Shown piece after piece: positions 22,147 through 59,110 of a DNA stretch of 64,000 nt (its first letter is position 1; each line of letters begins with the position of its first letter). The position numbers were made by a program, and so were the translations under genes. The DNA is taken from contig CAVXMT010000005.1 in NCBI GenBank assembly GCA_963763105.1, forward strand, positions 4,685 through 68,684. The letters are read 5' to 3'. Under the pieces are notes generated by a model that searched no databases, was not told where the DNA came from, and saw only the letters and a program-made list of their open reading frames with translations. Source of the stretch: an uncultured Candidatus Altimarinota bacterium. Its GTDB lineage: Bacteria; Patescibacteriota; Gracilibacteria; BD1-5; UBA2023.

Positions 22147-22196
22147 TAACGTATAGGTATTCCCCTTTTTGACTCTCAAAATCTAAAATTTCATTT

Positions 22197-22820
22197 ATGA
22201 AAGCTCCTCTCTTCGACACTCACGGAAAAAATAAAGGTACTATCGACCTTGCAGATTCTCACTTTGGAGTCACTCCAAATCTTGGACTTATGCATCGTCT
22301 CCTTGTCCTCCAGCAGGCCAATGGGCGTATCTCAATAGCACACACAAAACATCGCGGTGAAGTCGCTGGATCGACACGAAAACTCTTCAAGCAAAAAGGA
22401 ACAGGAAATGCTCGTATGGGTGATAAGCGTTCTCCAATGCGTCGTGGTGGAGGTGTTGTATTTGGTCCTCGAAGTGAGAGAAATTTTTCTCTCTGTATGA
22501 ATGCTCAAGAGCGTCGACTTGCTCTTCTTTCTCTTCTCTCGACAAAGGCAACAGCAGAAAATGTAAAAGTCGTCGAATCATTTGGAAAAGATGTCGCAAA
22601 GACAAAAGGAATGATGGTTTTTCTCTCTACTATGGAAGCAAAAAAACCTCTCATTGCTATCACTCGAGAAGAAAAAGACCAGATTGCAGGAGCATGGAAT
22701 ATTCCAGAACTTAAGGTGGTGAATGTCGAATATCTCAATCCGCACTCACTTCTCAAATACAAAGATCTCGTCTTTACAGAAGCTTCTCTCAAGCATCTCT
22801 ACGAACACTTTACAAAATAA
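22197..22820 (+). CDS. rplD: 50S ribosomal protein L4
   Basis: KQKGTGNARMGDKRSPMRRGGGVVFGPR. Confidence 0.95.
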   Translation: MKAPLFDTHGKNKGTIDLADSHFGVTPNLGLMHRLLVLQQANGRISIAHTKHRGEVAGSTRKLFKQKGTGNARMGDKRSPMRRGGGVVFGPRSERNFSLCMNAQERRLALLSLLSTKATAENVKVVESFGKDVAKTKGMMVFLSTMEAKKPLIAITREEKDQIAGAWNIPELKVVNVEYLNPHSLLKYKDLVFTEASLKHLYEHFTK

Positions 22821-22891
22821 TAGATTCGAGATGACAAATTCCAGGAATGAAATCTCTTCATCTAAAACTAAAACCCTCTAAATCTCTTCTT

Positions 22892-23185
22892 ATGAACTCT
22901 CTCTACTCAGTTATCAAACGATTCATCGTCACCAACAAGTCTACCGATGGTGAGGTACGTGGTGTATACACATGTTTTGTAGATCCAAGTGCGACAAAGA
23001 TTGATATAAAAAATGCATTTAAAACTCTCTATTGAGTTGGAGTCAGCAAAGTGAATATTCTTATGACTCGTGAGAAATTCCATAATACAAAGGCTTGAGT
23101 TACTCAAAAGAGACACTCAGAAAAGAAGGCTATGGTAACACTCAATGATGGACAGAAGATAGTAAATTTTGACGCTATAAAATAA
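22892..23185 (+). CDS. rplW: 50S ribosomal protein L23
   Basis: Position between L4 and L2. ...FVDPSATKIDIKNAFKTLY-G-VGVSKVNIL. Internal ATG chosen at 22892. Confidence 0.85.
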
Positions 23186-23204
23186 TTTCTCATTTTTCCC
23201 CACT

Positions 23205-24047
23205 ATGCCAATCAAGAAGTATAAGCCTACCACCCCATCTCGCCGTTTTATGACAGGGCTTACATATGAAGAACTCACTACCAATGAGCCGTATAAGCCA
23301 CTTACAACATATAAAAAAGATCAAGCAGGTCGCAATCATGCTGGGCGTATTTCAGTCCGTCATCAAGGTGGAGGGCATAAGAAACTCTATCGTATTGTAG
23401 ATTTTATTTTCGATAAGATTGATATTGCTGCTCGTGTGGAGACTGTCGAATATGATCCATACCGTTCTTCATTCATTGCTCTTGTTTGTTATAAGGATGG
23501 AGAAAGAAGATATGTTCTTGCTCATACAGAGACAAAAGTTGGTGATGAGATCATTACAGCACGACAGGCAAAACCAATCCCAGGGAATCGTATGGAAATC
23601 GGAAATGTCCCTACAGGTCTTTTCGTACATAATGTCGAGATGATTGTTGGACAAGGAGCAACCGCTATTCGATCGGCTGGATCGTCTGCACTTGTTCTCT
23701 CTCAAGAAGGCGAATACACACAACTCAAGATGTCAAGCGGAGAAATCAGACTTGTCCACAAGAATTGTTTCGCTACCATTGGAGTTGTCTCAAATGCTGA
23801 TTGGAATCAGATAACTATCGGTAAGGCAGGACGATCACGTTGGATGGGAAAAAGACCTACAGTTCTCGGTTCTTCTATGAATCCAGTCGATCATCCACAC
23901 GGATGAGGTGAAGGACACCAATCAGTCGGTCAGAGAAAGGGTCCAAAAACTCCATGGGGACAACTCGCTCGTGGTGTCAAGACTCGTTCTCGAAAATACA
24001 CAGACAGATGGGTTCTTCGTACTCGTGCTGGAAAACTTCAGGGCTAA
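23205..24047 (+). CDS. rplB: 50S ribosomal protein L2
   Basis: SSMNPVDHPHG-G(TGA, 23904-23906)-GEGH. This is the universally conserved HPHGGGEG motif. Confidence 0.97.
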
Positions 24048-24075
24048 TTCAATCTAAACTTTAATTTCTCTTATT

Positions 24076-24339
24076 ATGACTCGTAGTCTTAAAAAATGAC
24101 CATACATTGATCCTCGTGTCTCAAAAAAAATTGAGGTACTCAATGCAAGTGGAAGAAAAAATGTTATCAAGACATGGTCTCGAGCATGTATGATTGCTCC
24201 AGAATTTGTCGGACATACATTTGGAGTTCATAATGGAAAACAACATATTCCAGTCTTTGTCACAGAAGATATGGTATGACACAAGCTTGGAGAATTTTCT
24301 TTCACTCGACGATTCCAAGGACATTCTGGAAATAAATAA
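24076..24339 (+). CDS. rpsS: 30S ribosomal protein S19
   Basis: MTRSLKK-G-PYID...[29 protein letters not shown]. Confidence 0.95.
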
Positions 24340-24392
24340 TAGAAAATTCCAGAAATGGAAAAATTCAATCTAAACTCTAAAATCTTCATTTT

Positions 24393-24719
24393 ATGAAAGC
24401 TTCTGTACAAAATGTTCGCATCTCACCAAAAAAACTTAATGTGATTGCATTCATTATTCGAAATATGTCAGCAAAGGATGCACTTGATACACTCCGATTT
24501 ATGCCAAAAAAAGGAGCTGATATTATGCATAAGGTTGTCTCAAGTGCTGTAGCAAATGCAACACACAATGACAGTCAATCACTTTCTGAGCTTGTAATCG
24601 CATCCGTAAATGTGACACAAGGTCTTGTATATAAGCGTATCAACCCTATCTCTCGTGGACGCGCTCATCGCATTCTCAAGAGAACTTCCCATGTTTTTCT
24701 TACTCTTTCTGTAAAATAA
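24393..24719 (+). CDS. rplV: 50S ribosomal protein L22
   Basis: Synteny and RISPKKLNVIA...RGRAHRILKRTSH. Confidence 0.93.
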   Translation: MKASVQNVRISPKKLNVIAFIIRNMSAKDALDTLRFMPKKGADIMHKVVSSAVANATHNDSQSLSELVIASVNVTQGLVYKRINPISRGRAHRILKRTSHVFLTLSVK

Positions 24720-24737
24720 TTTTTCTTCTATTTTTCT

Positions 24738-25376
24738 ATGTGACACAAGGTCTCACCTCTTGCATTCCGAATCGGATATATCAAAACTTGGCGTACTACA
24801 GGATATTATAATCGTAGCGATTATGCTCTCCATACAGCGCAAGATGTTGCTATCCGTGCTCTCGTCATGAAGCACTTCAAGAATCTTCCACTTGCGAATG
24901 TATTCATGAATCATAACGGGAATAGCCTCCTTTCTATTACACTTTTCACGTCTCGACCAGCGATCATTCTCGGTACAAATGATGACAATGTAAATAACCT
25001 CAAGGATATTCTCGTGAAGAGATTTCCAGGGTATACATTTACTCTTGAGGTGAAGGAAGTCAAAAAACCTGAACTCTCAGCATCTATTGTCGCTGATTCT
25101 ATTGCTCGTCAGATCGAGAAAAAAATGCCATACCGTCGAGTAATCAAGAATGCTATTGCAAAAACTATGGAAAAAGGGGGACTCGGTATCAAGGTCAAGC
25201 TTGGTGGTCGTCTCAATGGTGCAGAAATTGCTCGTCGTGAAACCTTCAAGGATGGAAGTATTCCAAGCCAGACGATTCGTGCTGATGTAGAATTCGCTTA
25301 TGAAAGAGCAGAGACCCCATCAGGAACAATCGGACTCAAGGTTTGGATCTATAAGGGCGATGTTTTCAAAAAATAA
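24738..25376 (+). CDS. rpsC: 30S ribosomal protein S3
   Basis: M-G-HKVSPLAFRIGYIKTW..., KVKLGGRLNGAEIAR. Confidence 0.95.
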
Positions 25377-25421
25377 ACTTGCAATTCCCAGTTTTTATCT
25401 ATAATCTTAACGATTCTTCTC

Positions 25422-25838
25422 ATGCTACAACCGAGCAGAACAAAATATCGAAAGGCGCATCGTGGTGTTATCAAAGGTCTTGCCACTCGTGGTTCAGACG
25501 TATCATTTGGTGAATACGCGCTTAAGACAACCGAATCTGGTTACATTACATCTCGACAGATCGAGAGTGCCCGAAAGGCTATCGTCCGCTTTCTCAAGAA
25601 GTGAGGCCAACTCTGGATTCGCATATTCCCAGACAAACCATATACAACTCATGCTGCAGAAGCTCCAATGGGTGGTGGTAAGGGAAGTGTCGAAATGTAT
25701 CGTGCCCCTGTAAAACCTGGACGTATTCTCTTTGAAATGGGAGATATCTCTCCAGAAATTGCTAGGGAAGCATTTACGATTGCATCTCATAAGCTTCCTG
25801 TGAAGACAAAAATTCTCATGTCAAAACACGACCTCTAA
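25422..25838 (+). CDS. rplP: 50S ribosomal protein L16
   Basis: [15 protein letters not shown]...APMGGGKGS. Confidence 0.95.
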
Positions 25839-25872
25839 GATTTCTCTGATCCACACTTAAATTCTCTCTCTT

Positions 25873-26082
25873 ATGGTAAAGGCAAAAAAAACATCAAAAG
25901 TTACGAAAGATTTCAAATCTCTCGATACAGTAGAACTTTCAAAAGAACTTACAACAGCAAGAAAAGAACTCTTTTCACTCCGTATGAAGCACTCTGTCGG
26001 TGAACTCAAGCAGCCTCACCTCGTTCGTGTCGCTCGCCGAAGCATTGCTCAGATTTCTACAGCCCTTCATTCGTCTATCTAA
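25873..26082 (+). CDS. rpmC: 50S ribosomal protein L29
   Basis: Synteny and [19 protein letters not shown]. Confidence 0.9.
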
Positions 26083-26102
26083 TTCCCTTACTTCAATTTC
26101 CT

Positions 26103-26351
26103 ATGCGTACTAAGACCGGTGTCGTCACAAGCACTAAGATGCAAAAAACTATCGTCGTCACTGTCGATACTTATAAGACGCATCCAAAGTATCAAAAGCG
26201 CTATAAATCTTCTGTAAAATTTTATGCTCATGATGAAAAAGGACTTGCGAAACTTGGTGACACTGTCACTGTTTCTGAGACTCGTCCCCTCTCTCGTCTT
26301 AAGCGTTGGGCTCTTGTAGAAGATTCTATCGTTTCTATCTCTAGTAAATAA
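26103..26351 (+). CDS. rpsQ: 30S ribosomal protein S17
   Basis: [14 protein letters not shown]...HPKYQKRYK...YAHDE. Confidence 0.93.
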
Positions 26352-26362
26352 TTTTCTTTTCT

Positions 26363-26731
26363 ATGATTCAGGCAGAAAGCAGACTTGTCGTCGTGGATAA
26401 TACGGGTGCTAAAGAAGTACTCTGTATCAAAGTTCTCAAAGGATCAAAGCGTCGCTATGCGAGCGTCGGTGATATCATCGTCGTCTCTGTGAAGCGCGCC
26501 CTTCCAAATGGAAATATCAAAAAGAAAACTGTCTGTAAGGCAGTCGTTGTTCGTACTTCAAAAGAGGTAGGACGTGATGATGGAACCTATGTACGTTCTG
26601 ATGATAATGCATGTGTTATTATTGATGATAAGCTCGAACCAAAAGGAACTCGTATTTTTGGTCCTGTATTCCGAGAACTGAAAGCGAGAGGATATCAGAA
26701 AATTATCTCTCTTGCCCCAGATGTTATCTAG
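26363..26731 (+). CDS. rplN: 50S ribosomal protein L14
   Basis: [18 protein letters not shown]...[12 protein letters not shown]. Confidence 0.96.
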
Positions 26732-26799
26732 GCCCTCGTTCTCGTCACAGAAAAATACAATTCATTCTTCCAAAACTCTAAAATCTCTCTATTCACTCT

Positions 26800-27102
26800 A
26801 TGAAAATTCACAAAGATGATCAAGTCATCGTCATTTCCTGAAAAGATAAAGGAAAAAAAGCAAAGGTTCTCCGTGCAATACCTGGAGATAATGCTATCGT
26901 GGTAGAAGGAGTTGGTATGGTTACTCGCCATATGAAGCGCCAAGGATCTACTCCTGGACAGAAAGTCACTTTTGAAAAACCAATCAATTCTTCCAATGTG
27001 ATGCTTCTCGATCCAAAATCAGGAGAGCCAACGCGTATCGGATACAAAATCGAAAATGGGAAAAAAGTTCGGTTCGCAAAGAAATCTGGAAATATTCTCT
27101 AA
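26800..27102 (+). CDS. rplX: 50S ribosomal protein L24
   Basis: MKIHKDDQVIVIS-G-KDKGKKAKV (KOW motif). Confidence 0.92.
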
Positions 27103-27151
27103 AAAATCTCATCGTATTATTTACTCTATAATACGCCCTTAATTCTCTTCT

Positions 27152-27691
27152 ATGACTTTCAAAGAACAATACATCAAAAAAATTCTTCCAGCACTTGCGA
27201 AGGAGCTCGGTATAGATAACACTATGGAGGTTCCTCATATCGAAAAGATAGTCCTCAACATGGGTATTGGTACATATGTTGCCTCTGGAAATAAAGATTT
27301 TTCAAGTCTCAAGAATGATCTTGCCCTTATTTCTGGACAGCTTCCAAGAATCAATCATGCACGTATAGCTATTTCGAACTTCAAGCTCCGTGAAGGTATG
27401 CCTGTCGGTATGACAGTAACTCTCCGAGGAGATCGTATGTATAATTTTCTCGAAAAACTTATTGCCATTGTTCTTCCTCGAGTTCGTGACTTTCGTGGTA
27501 TTTCTGCTCGTGGATTCGACCAAGAAGGGAACTTCAACTTCGGTATCAGAGAGCACACTATATTCCCAGAAGTTCCTCAGCTTGATGTCGTCAAGTCACA
27601 TGGACTTCAGGTCACAATCAAGATGAAGTCAGGTACTCCTACTTATTCCAAGGCTCTTCTCGAAAAACTCAGCTTTCCATTCAGTAAGTAA
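27152..27691 (+). CDS. rplE: 50S ribosomal protein L5
   Basis: [28 protein letters not shown]...DFRG. Confidence 0.95.
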
Positions 27692-27723
27692 TCCTACTCT
27701 CTCTAAAATCTAAATTTCTTTCT

Positions 27724-27948
27724 ATGGCTCGAACAGCTCTCGTCAATAAATGCAGAAATGCTCAAAATGCAGCATCTCGTGCTCATGAAAATGGCAAGGA
27801 TCCAAAATTTGCCACTCGACTCTATCATCGTTGTTCACACTGTGGACGTGCGTATGGATATATTGGAAAATTTGATCTCTGTCGAATCTGTGTCCGTGAG
27901 AAAGCAAATGCCTGAGAACTTATGGGCGTTCGAAAGTCAAGCTGGTAA
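27724..27948 (+). CDS. rpsN: 30S ribosomal protein S14 (Cys-containing form)
   Basis: [24 protein letters not shown]...[11 protein letters not shown]. TAA stop at 27946. Confidence 0.9.
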
Positions 27949-27990
27949 TAGTCCAAAAGAATAATTTTTACTTCCGTTTTTTCTCTTTTT

Positions 27991-28377
27991 ATGATCATCG
28001 ATCCTATCGCAGATCTCCTCACTCGCATCCGAAATGGCTACCTTGCTCGTCTTTCGACTATCGAGGCACCATATTCAAAACTTAAAGCAGAAATTCTCCG
28101 AATTCTCAAGAAGAATGGACATATTGTCAGCTTTACGCTTTCCGAAGAGACTCATACATTTACGATTACTCTTCAGGATGTTCGTAAGACAAAGTATGTT
28201 CCGTCTTTCCGACGTATTTCTCGTCCAGGACAACGTATTTATATTCGTTCTTCTGATATCAAGAAGTCACGAAATGGAGTTGGTATATTTATCCTCTCAA
28301 CTCCGAAAGGAATTGTCACAGGATATGAGGCACATACTCTTGGCGTTGGTGGTGAGCTTCTCTGTGAAATATTCTAA
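27991..28377 (+). CDS. rpsH: 30S ribosomal protein S8
   Basis: DPIADLLTRIRNG...GGELLCEIF. Confidence 0.95.
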   Translation: MIIDPIADLLTRIRNGYLARLSTIEAPYSKLKAEILRILKKNGHIVSFTLSEETHTFTITLQDVRKTKYVPSFRRISRPGQRIYIRSSDIKKSRNGVGIFILSTPKGIVTGYEAHTLGVGGELLCEIF

Positions 28378-28443
28378 ATATTATAAAGCTGGAAATGGTG
28401 GATACTTCCACTTTCCATAACTAATCTCTAAATTCTACTCATT

Positions 28444-28995
28444 ATGTCTCGAATCGGAAAACAACCCGTCAAGCTCCCTACAGGAGTTTCTGTGGAGATC
28501 ACCTCTACAGAGGTAAAGATAAAATGACCAAAAGGAAATCTTTCGTTCAATATTCTTGAATGAGTATCTGTAAAACAAGAAGGAGAAACACTTCTTGTAT
28601 CAGTAAAGAACCCTGAAGCAAAACAAGAACGTGCCTATTGGGGACTTACTCGTGCAATGCTTCAGAATATGACAGTTTGAGTCTCAGAAGGATATACAAA
28701 GAGTCTCGAGATTCTCTGAGTTGGATACAAATTTGATGTAAAATGACCACGAAAACTTGAGCTTGCTATCGGATTTTCTCACAAGGTTAATGTCGATGCT
28801 CCAGAAGGAATTACTATCGAAGTTGATAAAGAAGAGAAAAATAAGATTCATCTCCGTTCTCATGACAAACAACTTCTCGGATATTTTGCAGCGTATGTCA
28901 GATCTCTCAAGAAGCCTGAGCCATACAAAGGAAAGGGAATTAGATATGTCGGTGAATATGTCAGAAAAAAGGCTGGTAAAACAGCTGGAAAATAG
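28444..28995 (+). CDS. rplF: 50S ribosomal protein L6
   Basis: MSRIGKQPVKLP...KKPEPYKGKGIRY. Five TGA-Gly codons. Confidence 0.94.
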
Positions 28996-29033
28996 TCTCA
29001 ACTATAAATTGTCAATTATAAATTTTCTTATCT

Positions 29034-29375
29034 ATGCTTATCAAAGTAAAAAATCGTCTTCGTAGAGCCAATCGTGTCAGAGCTCGTATAGAGTGAACTG
29101 CCATGAAACCTCGTCTCTCTGTCTTTCGAAGCAATACTCATATCACGGTACAGGCAATCGATGACACTACAGGTGTCACCCTTTGTAGCGCACATGATAT
29201 TGCAGCAAAAAAAGGAACAAAGTCAGAACGAGCTCGAGAAGTCGGGGCAACTATAGCAAAGACTATGCTCGAAAAATGAATCACAGCATGTATTTTTGAT
29301 CGAGGTGGATACCTCTATCACGGTCGAGTCAAGGCTCTTGCTGAAGGAGCTCGTGAAGCTGGTCTTGCTTTCTAA
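29034..29375 (+). CDS. rplR: 50S ribosomal protein L18
   Basis: [18 protein letters not shown]...[24 protein letters not shown]. Confidence 0.94.
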
Positions 29376-29412
29376 TCACGATTTATTCCACTTTCTTAAT
29401 AACTCTTTTTCT

Positions 29413-30168
29413 ATGTCAGATATCCAGACTCAAACTCCTCCTGAAACTCTCGAAACTCCTCAAGAGCAATCTGGGGCGCCTTCACAAAGTCGTCCACCTC
29501 GAGATGGTGCTCGAAAGGAACATGGCGATCGTCCACGAGGACCACGCCGTGATGGTATGCGTGAAGAAGAAAAAGAATTCAAAGAAGAGCTTCTTGCTAT
29601 TGATCGAGTGACTCGTGTGACTGCCGGAGGTCGTCAGATTCGATTCCGTGCTTCTATCGTCATCGGTGATGGGAAGGGTCGTATCGGACTCGGTGTCGGA
29701 AAGGCTGGAGAAGTCCAAGTGGCTATCGAAAAGGCTATTCGTGATGCAAAAAAGAATCTTGTGACATTTCAGATCGTCAATGGAACAATTTCTCATGAAG
29801 TTTGTGTAGAATACAAGGCATCGTCTCTTCATATCCTTCCTGCTCATCCAGGTACAGGTATCATCGCCTGAGGTGCAGTACGAAAGATTTTCGCAGTATC
29901 TGGAGTCAAAGACGTCATCGCAAAACAACATGGAGCCCCAAATAAAATCACGAATGCTCGTGTCACACTCAAGGCACTCAGCGCACTCAAGCCTACGGCA
30001 CTCATCATAAAATTCTGATCTCAGAAGGCAGTAGTAGAAGTCAAAGAAGCTCCAGCTCCAAAAGAAGTAAAGGCTTCAGATGCAAAAACAACACCAGAAG
30101 TAAAAGCTGAAAAAGTAGCAAAAGCTGCTCCAGCAAAGAAAGCTCCAGCAAAGAAAAAAGCAGAATAA
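29413..30168 (+). CDS. rpsE: 30S ribosomal protein S5 with P/R/E-rich N-terminal and K/A/P-rich C-terminal extensions
   Basis: AIDRVTRVTAGGRQIRFRASIVIGDGKGRIGLGVGKA core. 251 codons. Confidence 0.93.
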
Positions 30169-30257
30169 TTCACTCAGATACTAGATTTCTGATGACAAAT
30201 TCTAGAAATGGAACAGTCAAACTAAAATCTCATCGCTAAAATCTAATTTCCCAATTT

Positions 30258-30713
30258 ATGACAACTCTTACTACACTCAAGCCTACTCTCGGTTCTCAAA
30301 CACGTTGACGTCGCGTCGCTCGCGGTGTGAGCTCCGGTCTCGGAGGAACATGTGGACGCGGTATGAACGGACAGAACTGTCGTACAGGAAAAGGAAAACG
30401 TTATCCTACATTCGAAGGAGGACAGACTCGTCTTTTTATGCGTACTCCGAAAAAGAGAGGATTCACCGCTTATGCTCCAAAAGAATTTGTCACAATCAAT
30501 CTTGATCAGATCCAGAAGATCGCTGACTCAGGAGTCACGACTATTGACTACGCTGTTCTCTATGAACGTCGCATGATCAGAGAGAAAGGAAAACTTCTTA
30601 AGATTCTCGGTCGCGGTACTCTCACTTCAAAAATTGAACTCATGGCTGACTCAGTCTCTCTCGGTGCTCGCACTATGATTGAGAAAGTAGGAGGGAGTGT
30701 GAATGTTGCATAA
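30258..30713 (+). CDS. rplO: 50S ribosomal protein L15
   Basis: [36 protein letters not shown]. Confidence 0.94.
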
Positions 30714-41926: not shown

Positions 41927-42679
41927 GGGTCTTCCCCAGTTATCGGTTAGTTTTTCGGAGTAATTTTAAGATTTCTTTGTAGATATCTTTTCATTTTATA
42001 CGACAATTATATCTAAATTCAGATTCTTTCAAATAATAATAAAAGTAGGCTTTCTTAATTCCATTGAATCTTGAGAGTCTTCTTTTTGTGAAGCTCCAAA
42101 ATGATTCAATTCAGTTGATGTGTTGGTTTCATCTGGCAAATTCATTCGCTCCATGATGAACTCTATAATGCTTTTCATATCCAATATCCACAAGTCCATC
42201 ATATGCAGGCCATCCATCACTATTTATCTCTGTATCTTCTATCTTTACTTTTCATCTGATTATAGGTAATAGAGTCTTCTTTTTTACATCAGGAACTATC
42301 TCAGTATATACTTTTCAGTTTCTTTTCAGGAGTCCAAATACTATTGTTTTCATTCCAGCTCATCTTCATCGTTTTCCACGAACTCGAGTAGGTCAGAAGT
42401 AAGATTCATCTATCTCCATAGTTCCACTCCACACTTCTGCTTTCTCCTTTTCTTGATTCTCAAATATACATTTACGAATATAGAGATACCAATCATCTAT
42501 AGTTTTTGGATTTAAACCAATAATTTCATGTGTTTTTGAAGCGGGTAAATCCAGTGAAAAGAACTTGATAATTTCTCTTGTTTTCTTGTTTCAAATTCGG
42601 GATTTTTTTCGATACAGGTTTTTCTTCTCCATAGAGCCAGTATATTAGGTAAATAAATACCGTCAACTGGGGAAGACCC
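41927..42679 (-). mobile_element. IS element 'A' (IS1595/ISXO2-like) nested in IS-B
   Basis: Perfect 15-bp inverted repeats GGGTCTTCCCCAGTT / AACTGGGGAAGACCC. 7-bp direct repeat TTGGATA at 41920-41926 and 42680-42686. Confidence 0.85.
41940..42632 (-). CDS. IS1595-family (ISXO2-like) DDE transposase
   Basis: MEIDESYF-G-PTRVRGKR-G-R-G-AG, NSDGWPAYDGL, HINGIESFWSFTKRRL, FRYN. Several TGA-Gly codons. Confidence 0.85.
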
Positions 42680-46194: not shown

Positions 46195-46230
46195 TCTATA
46201 ATTGTAAATGGTGAATGACAAATCCCCAAA

Positions 46231-46258
46231 CAATTAACAATTAACAATTAACAATTAT
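46231..46258. repeat. (CAATTAA)x3 plus CAATTAT heptamer array in the rpmJ-rpsM spacer
   Basis: caattaa caattaa caattaa caattat. Confidence 0.9.
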
Positions 46259-46264
46259 TTTTTT

Positions 46265-46630: not shown

Positions 46631-46672
46631 TTTATTACTAAAACCTCACTCTAAACTCTAAAATCTAAACCT

Positions 46673-47065
46673 ATGGCAAAAGTCACACTCCGCCGCTCAA
46701 AAAAAACTCGAAAAGTTGTTCCTGAGGCTGTCATCAGCATCACAGCAACGCTCAATAATACTCATGTCGTCGTTTCTGACCTTGCAGGGCAAGTACTTAC
46801 TTGGTCTACTGGTGGTACGGCAGGATTCAAATGAGCTCGAGAAGCAACACCATATGCAGCTCAGATTACAAGTGAGCAAGCAGTCGGAAAGGCAAAGACA
46901 CTTCATAATGTTGAGAAGGCTCATGTCTATGTCAGAGGTATTGGTGCTGGTCGTGAACAGGCAATTCGTGGAATTATCAATTCATGAGTTGAACTTATTG
47001 GTATCTATGATATCACCCCGGTTCCTCACAATGGTTGCCGAAAACGAAAAGCACGAAAACTCTAA
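46673..47065 (+). CDS. rpsK: 30S ribosomal protein S11
   Basis: NNTHVVVSDLAGQVLTWSTGG...VRGIGAGREQAIRG...TPVPHNGCRKRKARK. Confidence 0.95.
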
Positions 47066-48776: not shown

Positions 48777-48784
48777 ACCAACCG

Positions 48785-48805
48785 ATAATTCATAATTCAT
48801 AATTC
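48785..48805. repeat. (ATAATTC)x3 heptamer array in the rpoA-rplQ spacer
   Basis: ataattc ataattc ataattc. Confidence 0.9.
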
Positions 48806-48811
48806 AATACC

Positions 48812-51379: not shown

Positions 51380-51420
51380 TTCAGACTAAAATCTCAATCT
51401 AAAATCTAAAATTCCTTTCT

Positions 51421-51657
51421 ATGACTATCTCCCCTAAACAGCAACTCTCAAAAGTTCGCGGAAAAAAACGATATGCTGCATGGCTTCGTCTCAATGCAAA
51501 AAGACTCAAGGATCTTGTCTCTCTTCAGTATAATGAACAGGGAGAAGCTACTGCTCTTTCTCACTTTGCTTCCCCAGTCACTGGTGAATACAAGGGAAGA
51601 AAAATATTCTCTATCCGCAGCGGAAAGGGAGTAACTCCGACAAAGATTCGTGCGTAA
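51421..51657 (+). CDS. rpmF: 50S ribosomal protein L32 (Cys-less form, C-terminal extension)
   Basis: SPKQQLSKVRGKKRYAAWLRLNAKRL matches the L32 PKRKTSKSRRdKRRAhw pattern. ...SHFASPVTGEYKGRKI matches H-x-vC-x-G-Y-x-GR with the Cys residues lost. Confidence 0.65.
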   Translation: MTISPKQQLSKVRGKKRYAAWLRLNAKRLKDLVSLQYNEQGEATALSHFASPVTGEYKGRKIFSIRSGKGVTPTKIRA

Positions 51658-58306: not shown

Positions 58307-59077
58307 TTATGTACGGAATCGACTCATTTCGACCTTTTTTTGTGCCTCTTGCCAGAGAGAGTCAGATATGTCAGCATTGTTGTATACCATCTCTACATCC
58401 TCATCTTCTTCACATGCTTCGAGAAAACTATAAAGCTGAAGAATATGGCCTGAATCAGTCGTTTCAATATAGGTCTTTGGTCTATAGATAAGACTTGCTG
58501 TATCTATAGTGTATCATCCACCTTTTAGGGAATTTTTTACACTCATGAGTTTTTCACGAGAAGTGATGACGGAGATAACTTCTCATTCGATAGAATAGTC
58601 GAGAGCATCTGTCTCAAGGATACTATTCTCGAATGCTTCCATATCTTCAGGAAGTATAAGTCTAATCTCTCCAATATGATCAAAAATATAATTTGAAACT
58701 GATCCCGTTTCTCCAAGATTTCCTCATACGGATGAGAAAATATGACGAATACTTGGAGCTGTACGATTGCGATTATCAGTAAGTGCTTTTACGATCACAG
58801 CAATACCTCATGGAAGATAGCCTTCATAGAGAATTTCTTCGACTTTCTTTGTATCAGTATCAAGCCCTGCTCAGCGCTTGATAGCTCGATCAATGACATC
58901 AATATTGACTCAAGCTTTTTTTGCTGTCGTTATTGCATCAGCAAGGGCATTATTCTGTCATGGATCTGCTCCACGTTCTGCAGCGAGAGCAATAATCTTT
59001 GAATGAATAGCATACGTTTTTGATTTTGCTTTGGCACCAGCTTCTTTCTGAGCCGCAACTGTTGGTCAGCGTCACAT
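58307..59077 (-). CDS. yebC: YebC/PmpR-family transcriptional regulator
   Basis: M-G-R-G-PTVAAQK..., NALADAITTAKKA-G-VNIDVIDRAIKR-G-AG, YEGYLP-G-GIAVIV, NRNRTAPSIRHIF. Confidence 0.88.
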
Positions 59078-59082
59078 AGGTG

Positions 59083-59110
59083 TAGAGTTTAGATAATAGA
59101 GTTTAGGATA
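59083..59110. repeat. 14-mer x2 tandem in the yebC leader
   Basis: tagagtttagataa, tagagtttaggata. On the coding strand this reads ...TCCTAAACTCTATTATCTAAACTCTAcacctATG, the same CTAAAC/TCTAAA motif as the r-protein leaders. Confidence 0.8.

Follow-up and report, generated by a model that had tools for sequence, protein, structure and literature searches.

How do ribosomes find their start codons when the mRNAs offer them no Shine-Dalgarno (SD) sequence? The question is raised by a 64,000-nt stretch of DNA (the window; G000:C5:4685-68684) from a 943-kb, 15-contig, 83%-complete metagenome-assembled genome (G000) of an uncultured Gracilibacterium, in which ribosomal-protein and other genes are preceded by G-poor leaders. 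The original prediction held that these leaders are built from TCTAAAN heptads and suggested a lineage-specific initiation signal or an S1-type A/U-rich enhancer in place of SD pairing. Our analysis supports a modified form of this proposal: SD pairing appears to be unused, and a position-locked, strand-specific signal recurs across the order, but that signal is a short YUAA element at about −14 and not the TCTAAAN heptad itself. We put at roughly 65% the probability that the leaders are SD-independent translation-initiation regions, each a G-free landing pad carrying a positioned YUAA that is amplified to heptads before highly expressed genes.

A UAA element upstream of start codons

The genome uses genetic code table 25, in which TGA encodes glycine: TGA codons are used in the HPHGGGEG segment of rplB, and the genome carries a tRNA-Gly(UCA). 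We called 866 genes under table 25 with a dicodon model that takes no account of upstream information. Start calls from this model are noisy (yebC, for example, is mis-extended); Pfam matches confirm L4, L22, S14, L15, S13, S11, L17, L32, L27, and YebC.

Across 703 ATG starts, G drops from 17% to 5–10% over positions −20 to −1, and T reaches 68% at −1. The k-mers enriched at −30 to −1 all include TAA (TCTAA, CTAAT, TTAAC, TAACTT, TAATTT, and CTAAAAT). In the 567 genes with an upstream gap of at least 45 nt, a subset that excludes interference from upstream stop codons, TAA occurrences peak at starting positions −15, −14, −13, and −12, with counts of 46, 39, 46, and 32 vs about 12 elsewhere, in all three frames. 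The base before a start-proximal TAA is C or T in 66% of cases, and the tract after it is G-free and rich in pyrimidines; for TAA at other intergenic positions, the preceding base is A in 55%. The general element consists of YUAA at −14 ± 2, with a second register at −21, a G-free pyrimidine-rich spacer, and U at −1. The counts are anchored and positional ones, used in place of an unsupervised expectation-maximization motif search over −30 to −3 that drifted to purine-rich upstream coding ends and yielded no usable matrix.

The surroundings of the start codon are also distinctive in structure and in AUG content. In particular, the mean minimum free energy of the 50 nt around starts is −4.1 kcal/mol vs −6.8 kcal/mol inside genes, and ATG is depleted from −20 to +12, with 0.7–1.1 occurrences per 100 nt near starts vs 1.3–1.6 further upstream and 2.0–2.3 inside genes.

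The heptad is only the strongest form of this weaker, general signal. In the sense strand of the 45 nt before starts, TCTAAA[ACT] occurs at 1.35/kb, vs about 0.3/kb in antisense or elsewhere in intergenic DNA and 0.13/kb in coding DNA, an enrichment of about 4-fold and about 10-fold, respectively; within 45 nt of starts, 42 heptads are in sense and 10 in antisense orientation. The predicted excess over background and the G-free character of the leaders were thus borne out, but heptads as the general building block were not: a strict heptad is present in only about 100 of the 866 genes, tandem cases are mostly at ribosomal-protein genes, and other units occur too. The array unit varies by gene, being TCTAAAA/C for rpsK, rpmF, and rplV, CAATTAA (four copies) for rpsM, and ATAATTC (three copies) for rplQ. 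Periodicity of 7 nt is nevertheless pronounced, with a lag-7 identity of 0.427 vs 0.325 in a shuffled null (z = 7.2) for 27 ribosomal-cluster leaders and z = 3.4 for the remaining genes.

The element is strongest in the ribosomal clusters. TAA lies at −16 to −12 in 21 of 28 ribosomal-cluster genes (75%) and in 194 of 652 others (30%; Fisher p = 2e-6), over a background of 9.7% in distal intergenic DNA. It is also present where genes abut. For same-strand pairs with a gap of 0–5 nt, a TAA at −18 to −10 must lie out of frame within the upstream gene; such an embedded TAA occurs 28 times in 55 pairs, vs 4.9 times expected from the remainder of the upstream coding sequence. The UAA element is selected even within upstream coding sequence.

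The position of the element recurs in relatives. We examined the ribosomal cluster of 32 relatives, with starts fixed by tblastn using the proteins of the window, and obtained 160 same-genus leaders from 10 genomes. TAA starts at −15, −14, and −13 in 27, 39, and 34 of these leaders (100 of 160), with a second peak of 17, 36, and 23 at −22 to −20; T(−1) is present in 93%, and G does not exceed 6%. The −14 peak and T(−1) are kept in other genera of the family and in one sister family (f2), and are weaker in another (f3), in which the TAA is often supplied by the stop codon of the upstream gene. The UAA(−14) signal is conserved across the order, and, among the genomes sampled, the sharp UAA(−14) and U(−1) signature is found only in that order.

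Comparison with a near-identical strain (G010; proteins 96–100% identical) separates single-copy leaders from arrays. Single-copy leaders are nearly unchanged. The array leaders of rplV, rplO, and rplW differ in copy number and unit (the rplV leader, for instance, has three heptads in the strain vs two in the window), and the last TAA is still at −15 or −14. Array copy number and unit sequence also differ between species. The heptad arrays represent a variable amplification, prone to slippage and found chiefly upstream of highly expressed genes.

Shine-Dalgarno pairing and the 16S rRNA tail

The absence of GGAGG-like elements, which had been noticed for translation genes of the window, holds for the whole genome: GGAGG is found in 1 of 862 upstream regions, and 75% of 28 ribosomal-cluster leaders have no G at all in −20 to −1. 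Normal SD usage is not seen genome-wide either, GGAG, GAGG, and AGGA being about half as frequent at −20 to −3 as at −60 to −43. None of the 160 same-genus ribosomal leaders has an SD-like 4-mer.

The 16S tail of three same-genus genomes is GGACUAUCUCUUUA, with a 3′ end of GGAUGGACUAUCUCUUUA vs the canonical GGAUCACCUCCUUA. Specifically, the anti-SD CCUCC is changed to UCUCU; the sister families f2 and f3 have UCUCC and CCUCU in place of CCUCC. SD pairing, then, is on this evidence not used in this organism. The complement of the new tail (TAAAGAG, AAAGAG, AAGAGA) was considered as a new SD and ruled out: it is depleted, not enriched, 5′ of starts, both in the genome and in same-genus leaders.

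The altered tail has potential pairing partners elsewhere in the rRNA transcript. The 16S 5′ end of three relatives (loci L005, L008, and L001; GUUCUAAAGAGUUUG) includes UAAAGAG, a perfect complement of the 3′ tail CUCUUUA of the same molecule, and the spacer directly after the 16S 3′ end can fold back onto the tail (ATCTCTTTATTAAGAGAT). Pairing with the 16S 5′ end or the spacer may sequester the tail or serve processing.

Decay of the anti-SD extends beyond the order. We collected 16S 3′ ends from 30 further genomes of the class, in families outside this order (loci L055-L084): CCUCC is retained in most and was lost independently in several (UCUCC, CCUCU, UCUCU, CCCCU). SD motifs are lacking in the ribosomal leaders of 18 of these genomes, with the anti-SD intact or not (0–2 of about 16 leaders per genome). 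Because SD motifs are absent even where the anti-SD is intact, these data suggest that the loss of SD use preceded the decay of the anti-SD, which occurred several times. These lineages have a different start context: A is at −3 in 57%, TAA is broadly distributed, and T is not preferred at −1.

Leaders in the window

The seven leaders quoted in the original prediction (rplD, rplV, rpsN, rpsK, rpmF, rplO, and yebC) were found exactly as quoted. Its span of 22147–30257 is too narrow for them, however: the leaders are real, but these coordinates take in the S10/spc ribosomal cluster only (21.6–30.7 kb of the window), and a second ribosomal cluster occupies 45.8–51.7 kb.

In the S10/spc cluster, all leaders are on the + strand. 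The rplD (L4) leader (22147–22196; quoted part, 22176–22196) is G-poor and comprises TCAAAATCTAAAAT, with TAA at −13 and U at −1. The rplW leader (22821–22894) has a small hairpin, TTCCAGGAATGAA, followed by TCTAAAA, CTAAAAC, and TCTAAAT units. The rplV (L22) leader (24366–24392) has two heptads, ATCTAAAC and TCTAAAAT, the last TAA being at −15, and is adjoined on its 5′ side by a GAAA-loop hairpin, TTCCAGAAATGGAA (24347–24360). Further downstream, the rplX leader (26732–26799) comprises CTCTAAAATC, with TAA at −21; the rpsN (S14) leader (27692–27723; quoted part, 27699–27723) comprises CTCTCTAAAATCTAAATTTCTTTCT, with TAA at −20 and −13; the rplF leader (28378–28443) comprises a hairpin, GGAAATGGTGGATACTTCCACTTTCC, and then CTCTAAATTCTACTCATT, with TAA at −14; and the rplO (L15) leader (30169–30257; ATG at 30258) comprises a hairpin, TTCTAGAAATGGAA, and then CTAAAATCTCATCGCTAAAATCTAATTTCCCAATTT.

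The leaders of the second cluster are also on the + strand. The rpsM (S13) leader (46229–46264) is a G-free heptad array, and the rplQ (L17) leader (48777–48811) is likewise an array, with the units given above. The rpsK (S11) leader (46631–46672; start at 46673) reads TCTAAAC TCTAAAA TCTAAAC, then CT and the ATG, and the rpmF (L32) leader (51380–51420; start at 51421) comprises CTAAAATCTCAATCTAAAATCTAAAATTCCTTTCT. On the − strand, the yebC leader (59078–59110; start at 59077) comprises CCTAAACTCTATTATCTAAACTCTACACCT, a 14-mer present twice, with TAA at −14.

Two of these starts are mis-placed by first-ATG or coding-potential rules, and in both the true ATG follows a G-free UAA leader. For rplW, the first ATG, at 22847, is not the start, which lies at 22895; for yebC, the start is the ATG at 59077, not 59161, as supported by the Pfam N-terminal domain, which begins at residue 7. 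Automatic annotation of this lineage likely makes the same error as for rplW and yebC.

Small GAAA- or GGAA-loop hairpins (TTCYAGRAATGRAA) lie directly 5′ of heptads at 24347–24360, 22838–22851, and 30199–30212. These three are the only TTCYAGRAATGRAA hairpins in the whole genome, all in ribosomal spacers, a number too small for analysis of a hairpin-plus-heptad module; GATGACAAA precedes the hairpin in two of the three. Two relatives (G006 and G007; loci L028 and L029) have a comparable module of hairpin and array (tctagaaa...) before rplV, rpsN, and rplO. The hairpins might serve as a processing site or belong to a dispersed module.

Heptad arrays that lack UAA occur on other contigs of the genome. 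A CCACTAT array of five copies lies directly 5′ of the start of a gene of 1295 aa (G000:C6, ~180217, −); a CTACCTC array of four copies, which includes CCTCC, lies directly before a start codon (G000:C7, ~7163, +); and an ACAATGG array of three copies, which has ATG in every frame, lies directly before another (G000:C6, ~143833, −).

Proposed mode of action, alternative explanations, and known systems

We propose that, with the 16S anti-SD decayed and mRNAs devoid of SD sequences, ribosomes would load on a short, G-free, unstructured stretch. A leader that is G-free is unstructured and holds no AUG, GUG, or UUG, and the first start codon after the landing pad would then be the real one. The stretch would have three position-specific features: a YUAA whose U lies at about −14 (or −21 in the second register), the pyrimidine-rich spacer, and U at −1. 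Slippage would multiply the UAA unit to 7-nt arrays, adding upstream copies and leaving the start-proximal copy unmoved.

We infer that the ribosome reads the UAA element, and the most plausible candidate readers are the OB-folds of bS1, which would act on an A/U/C-rich single strand. The genome encodes a bS1 homologue of 374 aa with S1 domains (G000:C8:26404-27528), which makes an involvement of bS1 plausible, and two features of an S1-dependent enhancer are found: an unstructured, A/U-rich, G-free tract 5′ of the start, and an encoded bS1. The homologue is short, and its own leader is long and G-poor, with a 14-nt periodic repeat (ttatttcttaa...). Two further contacts might assist. The first is a 3–4-bp contact of UAA(A) with the 16S 3′-terminal UUUA, whose position fits where UAAGGAGG would pair in E. 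coli; such a contact would be thermodynamically weak and is unsupported by covariation. The second is pairing of U(−1) with A37 of the initiator tRNA, as in the extended codon-anticodon model.

Several observations count against the proposal that the leaders are SD-independent initiation regions with a positioned YUAA. The 16S gene of this genome was not assembled, and its anti-SD state is taken from relatives. The same-genus 16S rRNA has no site that pairs with the heptad (TCTAAAAT, CTCTAAAATC, and two heptads were tried, with G-U pairs allowed), and matches to CTAATTT are only G-U-rich ones in universally conserved segments; thus, of the two possibilities raised for the 16S 3′ end, an altered anti-SD is seen in same-genus relatives, but complementarity to the heptad is not. 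An extended pairing of UAA with 16S was rejected, since across families the base after UAA is not consistently related to the 16S tail: it is A in 54% in the genus vs 28–31% where other lineages have a UUUA or CUUA tail. Arrays that have no UAA exist (CCACTAT, five copies; CTACCTC, four copies), so not all arrays can act via UAA. The general motif has a low information content, TAA being at −16 to −12 in only about one-third of called genes, although the start calls are noisy. Finally, function is deduced here from sequence statistics alone.

A more ambitious version of the proposal is possible, but we hold it only tentatively and consider it doubtful. On this version, UAA(−14), the −21 register, and U(−1) would form a dedicated ribosome-binding signal that replaces SD in the order and is read by a defined ribosomal component, either the remodelled 16S 3′ terminus (UUUA-3′) or the OB-folds of the short bS1, in which case their footprint of about 7 nt would account for the repeat period; the arrays would have evolved as multi-site enhancers of the genes translated at the highest level.

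The leaders could instead have no role in translation. The arrays would then be neutral or selfish, slippage-prone heptanucleotide microsatellites in a dispersed hairpin-plus-repeat module, and the scarcity of G would reflect intergenic composition. The variation in copy number and unit between near-identical strains and between species accords with this account, as does the existence of arrays of unrelated units, and the heptad as such is a common microsatellite: (TCTAAAA)3 or longer is present in 45 heterogeneous, unrelated IMG/VR viral contigs (loci L183-L227), some of them from giant-virus bins and some GC-rich, and its placement in these contigs is not tied to starts. The viral-contig scan says nothing on function. 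The account is nevertheless unlikely, because it leaves unexplained the sharp, frame-independent distance from the last TAA to the ATG, the strand bias, and the near-identity of single-copy leaders between strains. The excess of out-of-frame TAA within upstream coding sequence, where there is no spacer, is not explained by spacer slippage.

It is very unlikely, in our assessment, that the UAA units serve as stop codons in three frames, providing termination and then re-initiation at the next ATG in an organism with no SD and two stop codons. A period of 7 does place TAA in frames 0, 1, and 2, as has been remarked for TAACTGA repeats (MacGregor 2015, PMC4679880), and the TAA at about −14 is the real upstream stop in the compact operons of f3 and at some junctions here (rpsQ-rplN). 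But in the genus the upstream gene normally ends 20–90 nt before the array, such that in-frame ribosomes never arrive; single UAA elements keep the −14 spacing with no frame preference (27, 39, 34); and promoter-proximal first genes also bear the element.

Single-copy elements are present genome- and order-wide with no limit to a regulon, and array units differ between genes; both points make it very improbable that the repeats bind a particular post-transcriptional regulator that tunes expression, for instance a cold-shock-domain (CSD) protein or an autoregulatory ribosomal protein, instead of being a general loading signal. OB-fold and CSD proteins cover about 6–7 nt per domain, a footprint that does match the period, and the arrays are indeed concentrated on ribosomal-protein genes. 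S1, Csp, or CsrA has been proposed for TAACTGA repeats (MacGregor 2015, PMC4679880).

The remaining alternative concerns promoters, and here the tRNA genes provide a reference. Since tRNA genes need no ribosome site, their upstream motif shows the promoter of the organism: TTGACT or TTGCTT, 16–17 nt, TATAAT, and a GC-rich discriminator. A promoter scan on this basis revealed two classes of protein genes: leaderless genes, in which the −10 hexamer of a canonical TTGnnn-16/17-TAnnnT promoter ends exactly 6 nt 5′ of the ATG (30 genes, vs at most 9 at neighbouring distances), and genes with the −10 box 20–35 nt before the ATG. In the second class, YTAA stands between promoter and ATG, within a short 5′UTR, as in ttgcaa-16-tataat-cctcgcgtt-CTAATTT-tttttct-ATG. 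An example of a leaderless gene in the window is that at 41940–42632 (−), and several of the class belong to a repeated gene with an identical upstream sequence, ttgacggtatttatttacctaatatactggctct. At the −35 distance from YTAA(−15 to −12), the occurrence of TTG is flat in 104 genes, vs 18 of 69 genes of the TATAAT class at the expected offset; in 111 same-genus ribosomal leaders, the counts of TTG at that distance are 1, 0, 1, and 0. Because the element lies 3′ of canonical promoters and has no −35 element of its own, it is to be regarded as part of the transcript: by its context, it is a start-codon signal in the mRNA, not a promoter. It is therefore highly improbable that the UAA element is a −10-like box (TAAAAT resembling TATAAT) from which each gene produces its own leaderless transcript beginning at the A of the ATG: TAAnnT fits TAnnnT, U(−1)/A(+1) suits the pyrimidine-purine preference of start sites, and the genome does have genuine leaderless genes, but real promoters here have a strong TTGnnn −35 element and TATAAT whereas the element has no TTG at 16–18 nt, a hexamer starting at −14 would end 8 nt before the ATG vs 6 nt in leaderless genes, its sixth base is T in only 59%, the element often lies between a canonical −10 box and the ATG, and tandem copies would create overlapping −10 boxes.

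Defining SD-independent initiation regions of this kind would have practical consequences. Gene finders and expression models assume SD pairing, and in recoded members of the candidate phyla radiation (CPR) neither the genetic code nor the start signal is the usual one, with the result that starts are mis-called. A defined signal (G-free, UAA at −14, U at −1, with a leaderless subclass) would improve annotation of Gracilibacteria, and the UAA element offers a concrete, mutable target for the study of start-codon choice in the absence of SD pairing.

Parts of this picture have precedents. Lineages devoid of SD sites and of CCUCC have been published before, as have heptamer repeats that precede start codons; new here are the −14/−21 register, the separation of the element from promoters and leaderless genes, its enrichment within coding sequence, and the class-wide comparison. 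The literature found on Gracilibacteria, SR1, and the CPR offers catalogue-level SD and anti-SD loss only, with no replacement motif. Specifically, SD-scarce prokaryotes with no CCUCC in 16S have been grouped as class iv, which includes Absconditabacteria SR1 and Peribacter (PMC10783764). The present organism shares with class iv a near-absence of SD sites and an altered 16S 3′ tail (here from same-genus relatives); that work catalogues loss only and names no SD replacement, whereas the present analysis defines a positioned YUAA/U(−1) signature and a leaderless subclass.

SD-independent initiation in Bacteroidia has been studied in Flavobacterium johnsoniae (PMC6847099, PMC7797042). As here, the mRNAs have no SD, structure is low and AUG is depleted near starts, and key upstream nucleotides tune initiation, a likeness to the present leaders. 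Bacteroidia, however, keep the anti-SD and hide it with bS21, bS18, and bS6, whereas in the present lineage the anti-SD has mutated, and a search for bS21 (PF01165) found none in the 83%-complete genome, in agreement with PMC9297842. Adenine at −3, a positive determinant in Bacteroidia, is not a feature of the present leaders (T 44% and A 30% at −3), in contrast to the other families of the class (A 57%).

A further close parallel was described by MacGregor (2015, PMC4679880) in marine Beggiatoaceae, some Cyanobacteria, and Bacteroidetes: intergenic direct repeats of the TAACTGA heptamer directly 5′ of start codons. In both systems, forward tandem 7-nt repeats end a few nucleotides before starts, SD is usually absent, ribosomal-protein operons are included, stops fall in three frames, and copy number changes in steps of 7 nt; S1 or Csp was suggested as reader there. 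The systems differ in three respects: the units here are TCTAAAA/C, CAATTAA, ATAATTC, CCACTAT, and CTACCTC, and TGA is a sense codon; Beggiatoaceae keep AGGAGGU pairing, unlike the present lineage, in which the anti-SD is lost; and the arrays here amplify a UAA(−14) signal that is present genome-wide in single copy and was not described for TAACTGA. The puzzling heptamer repeats of several phyla are thereby linked to translation initiation.

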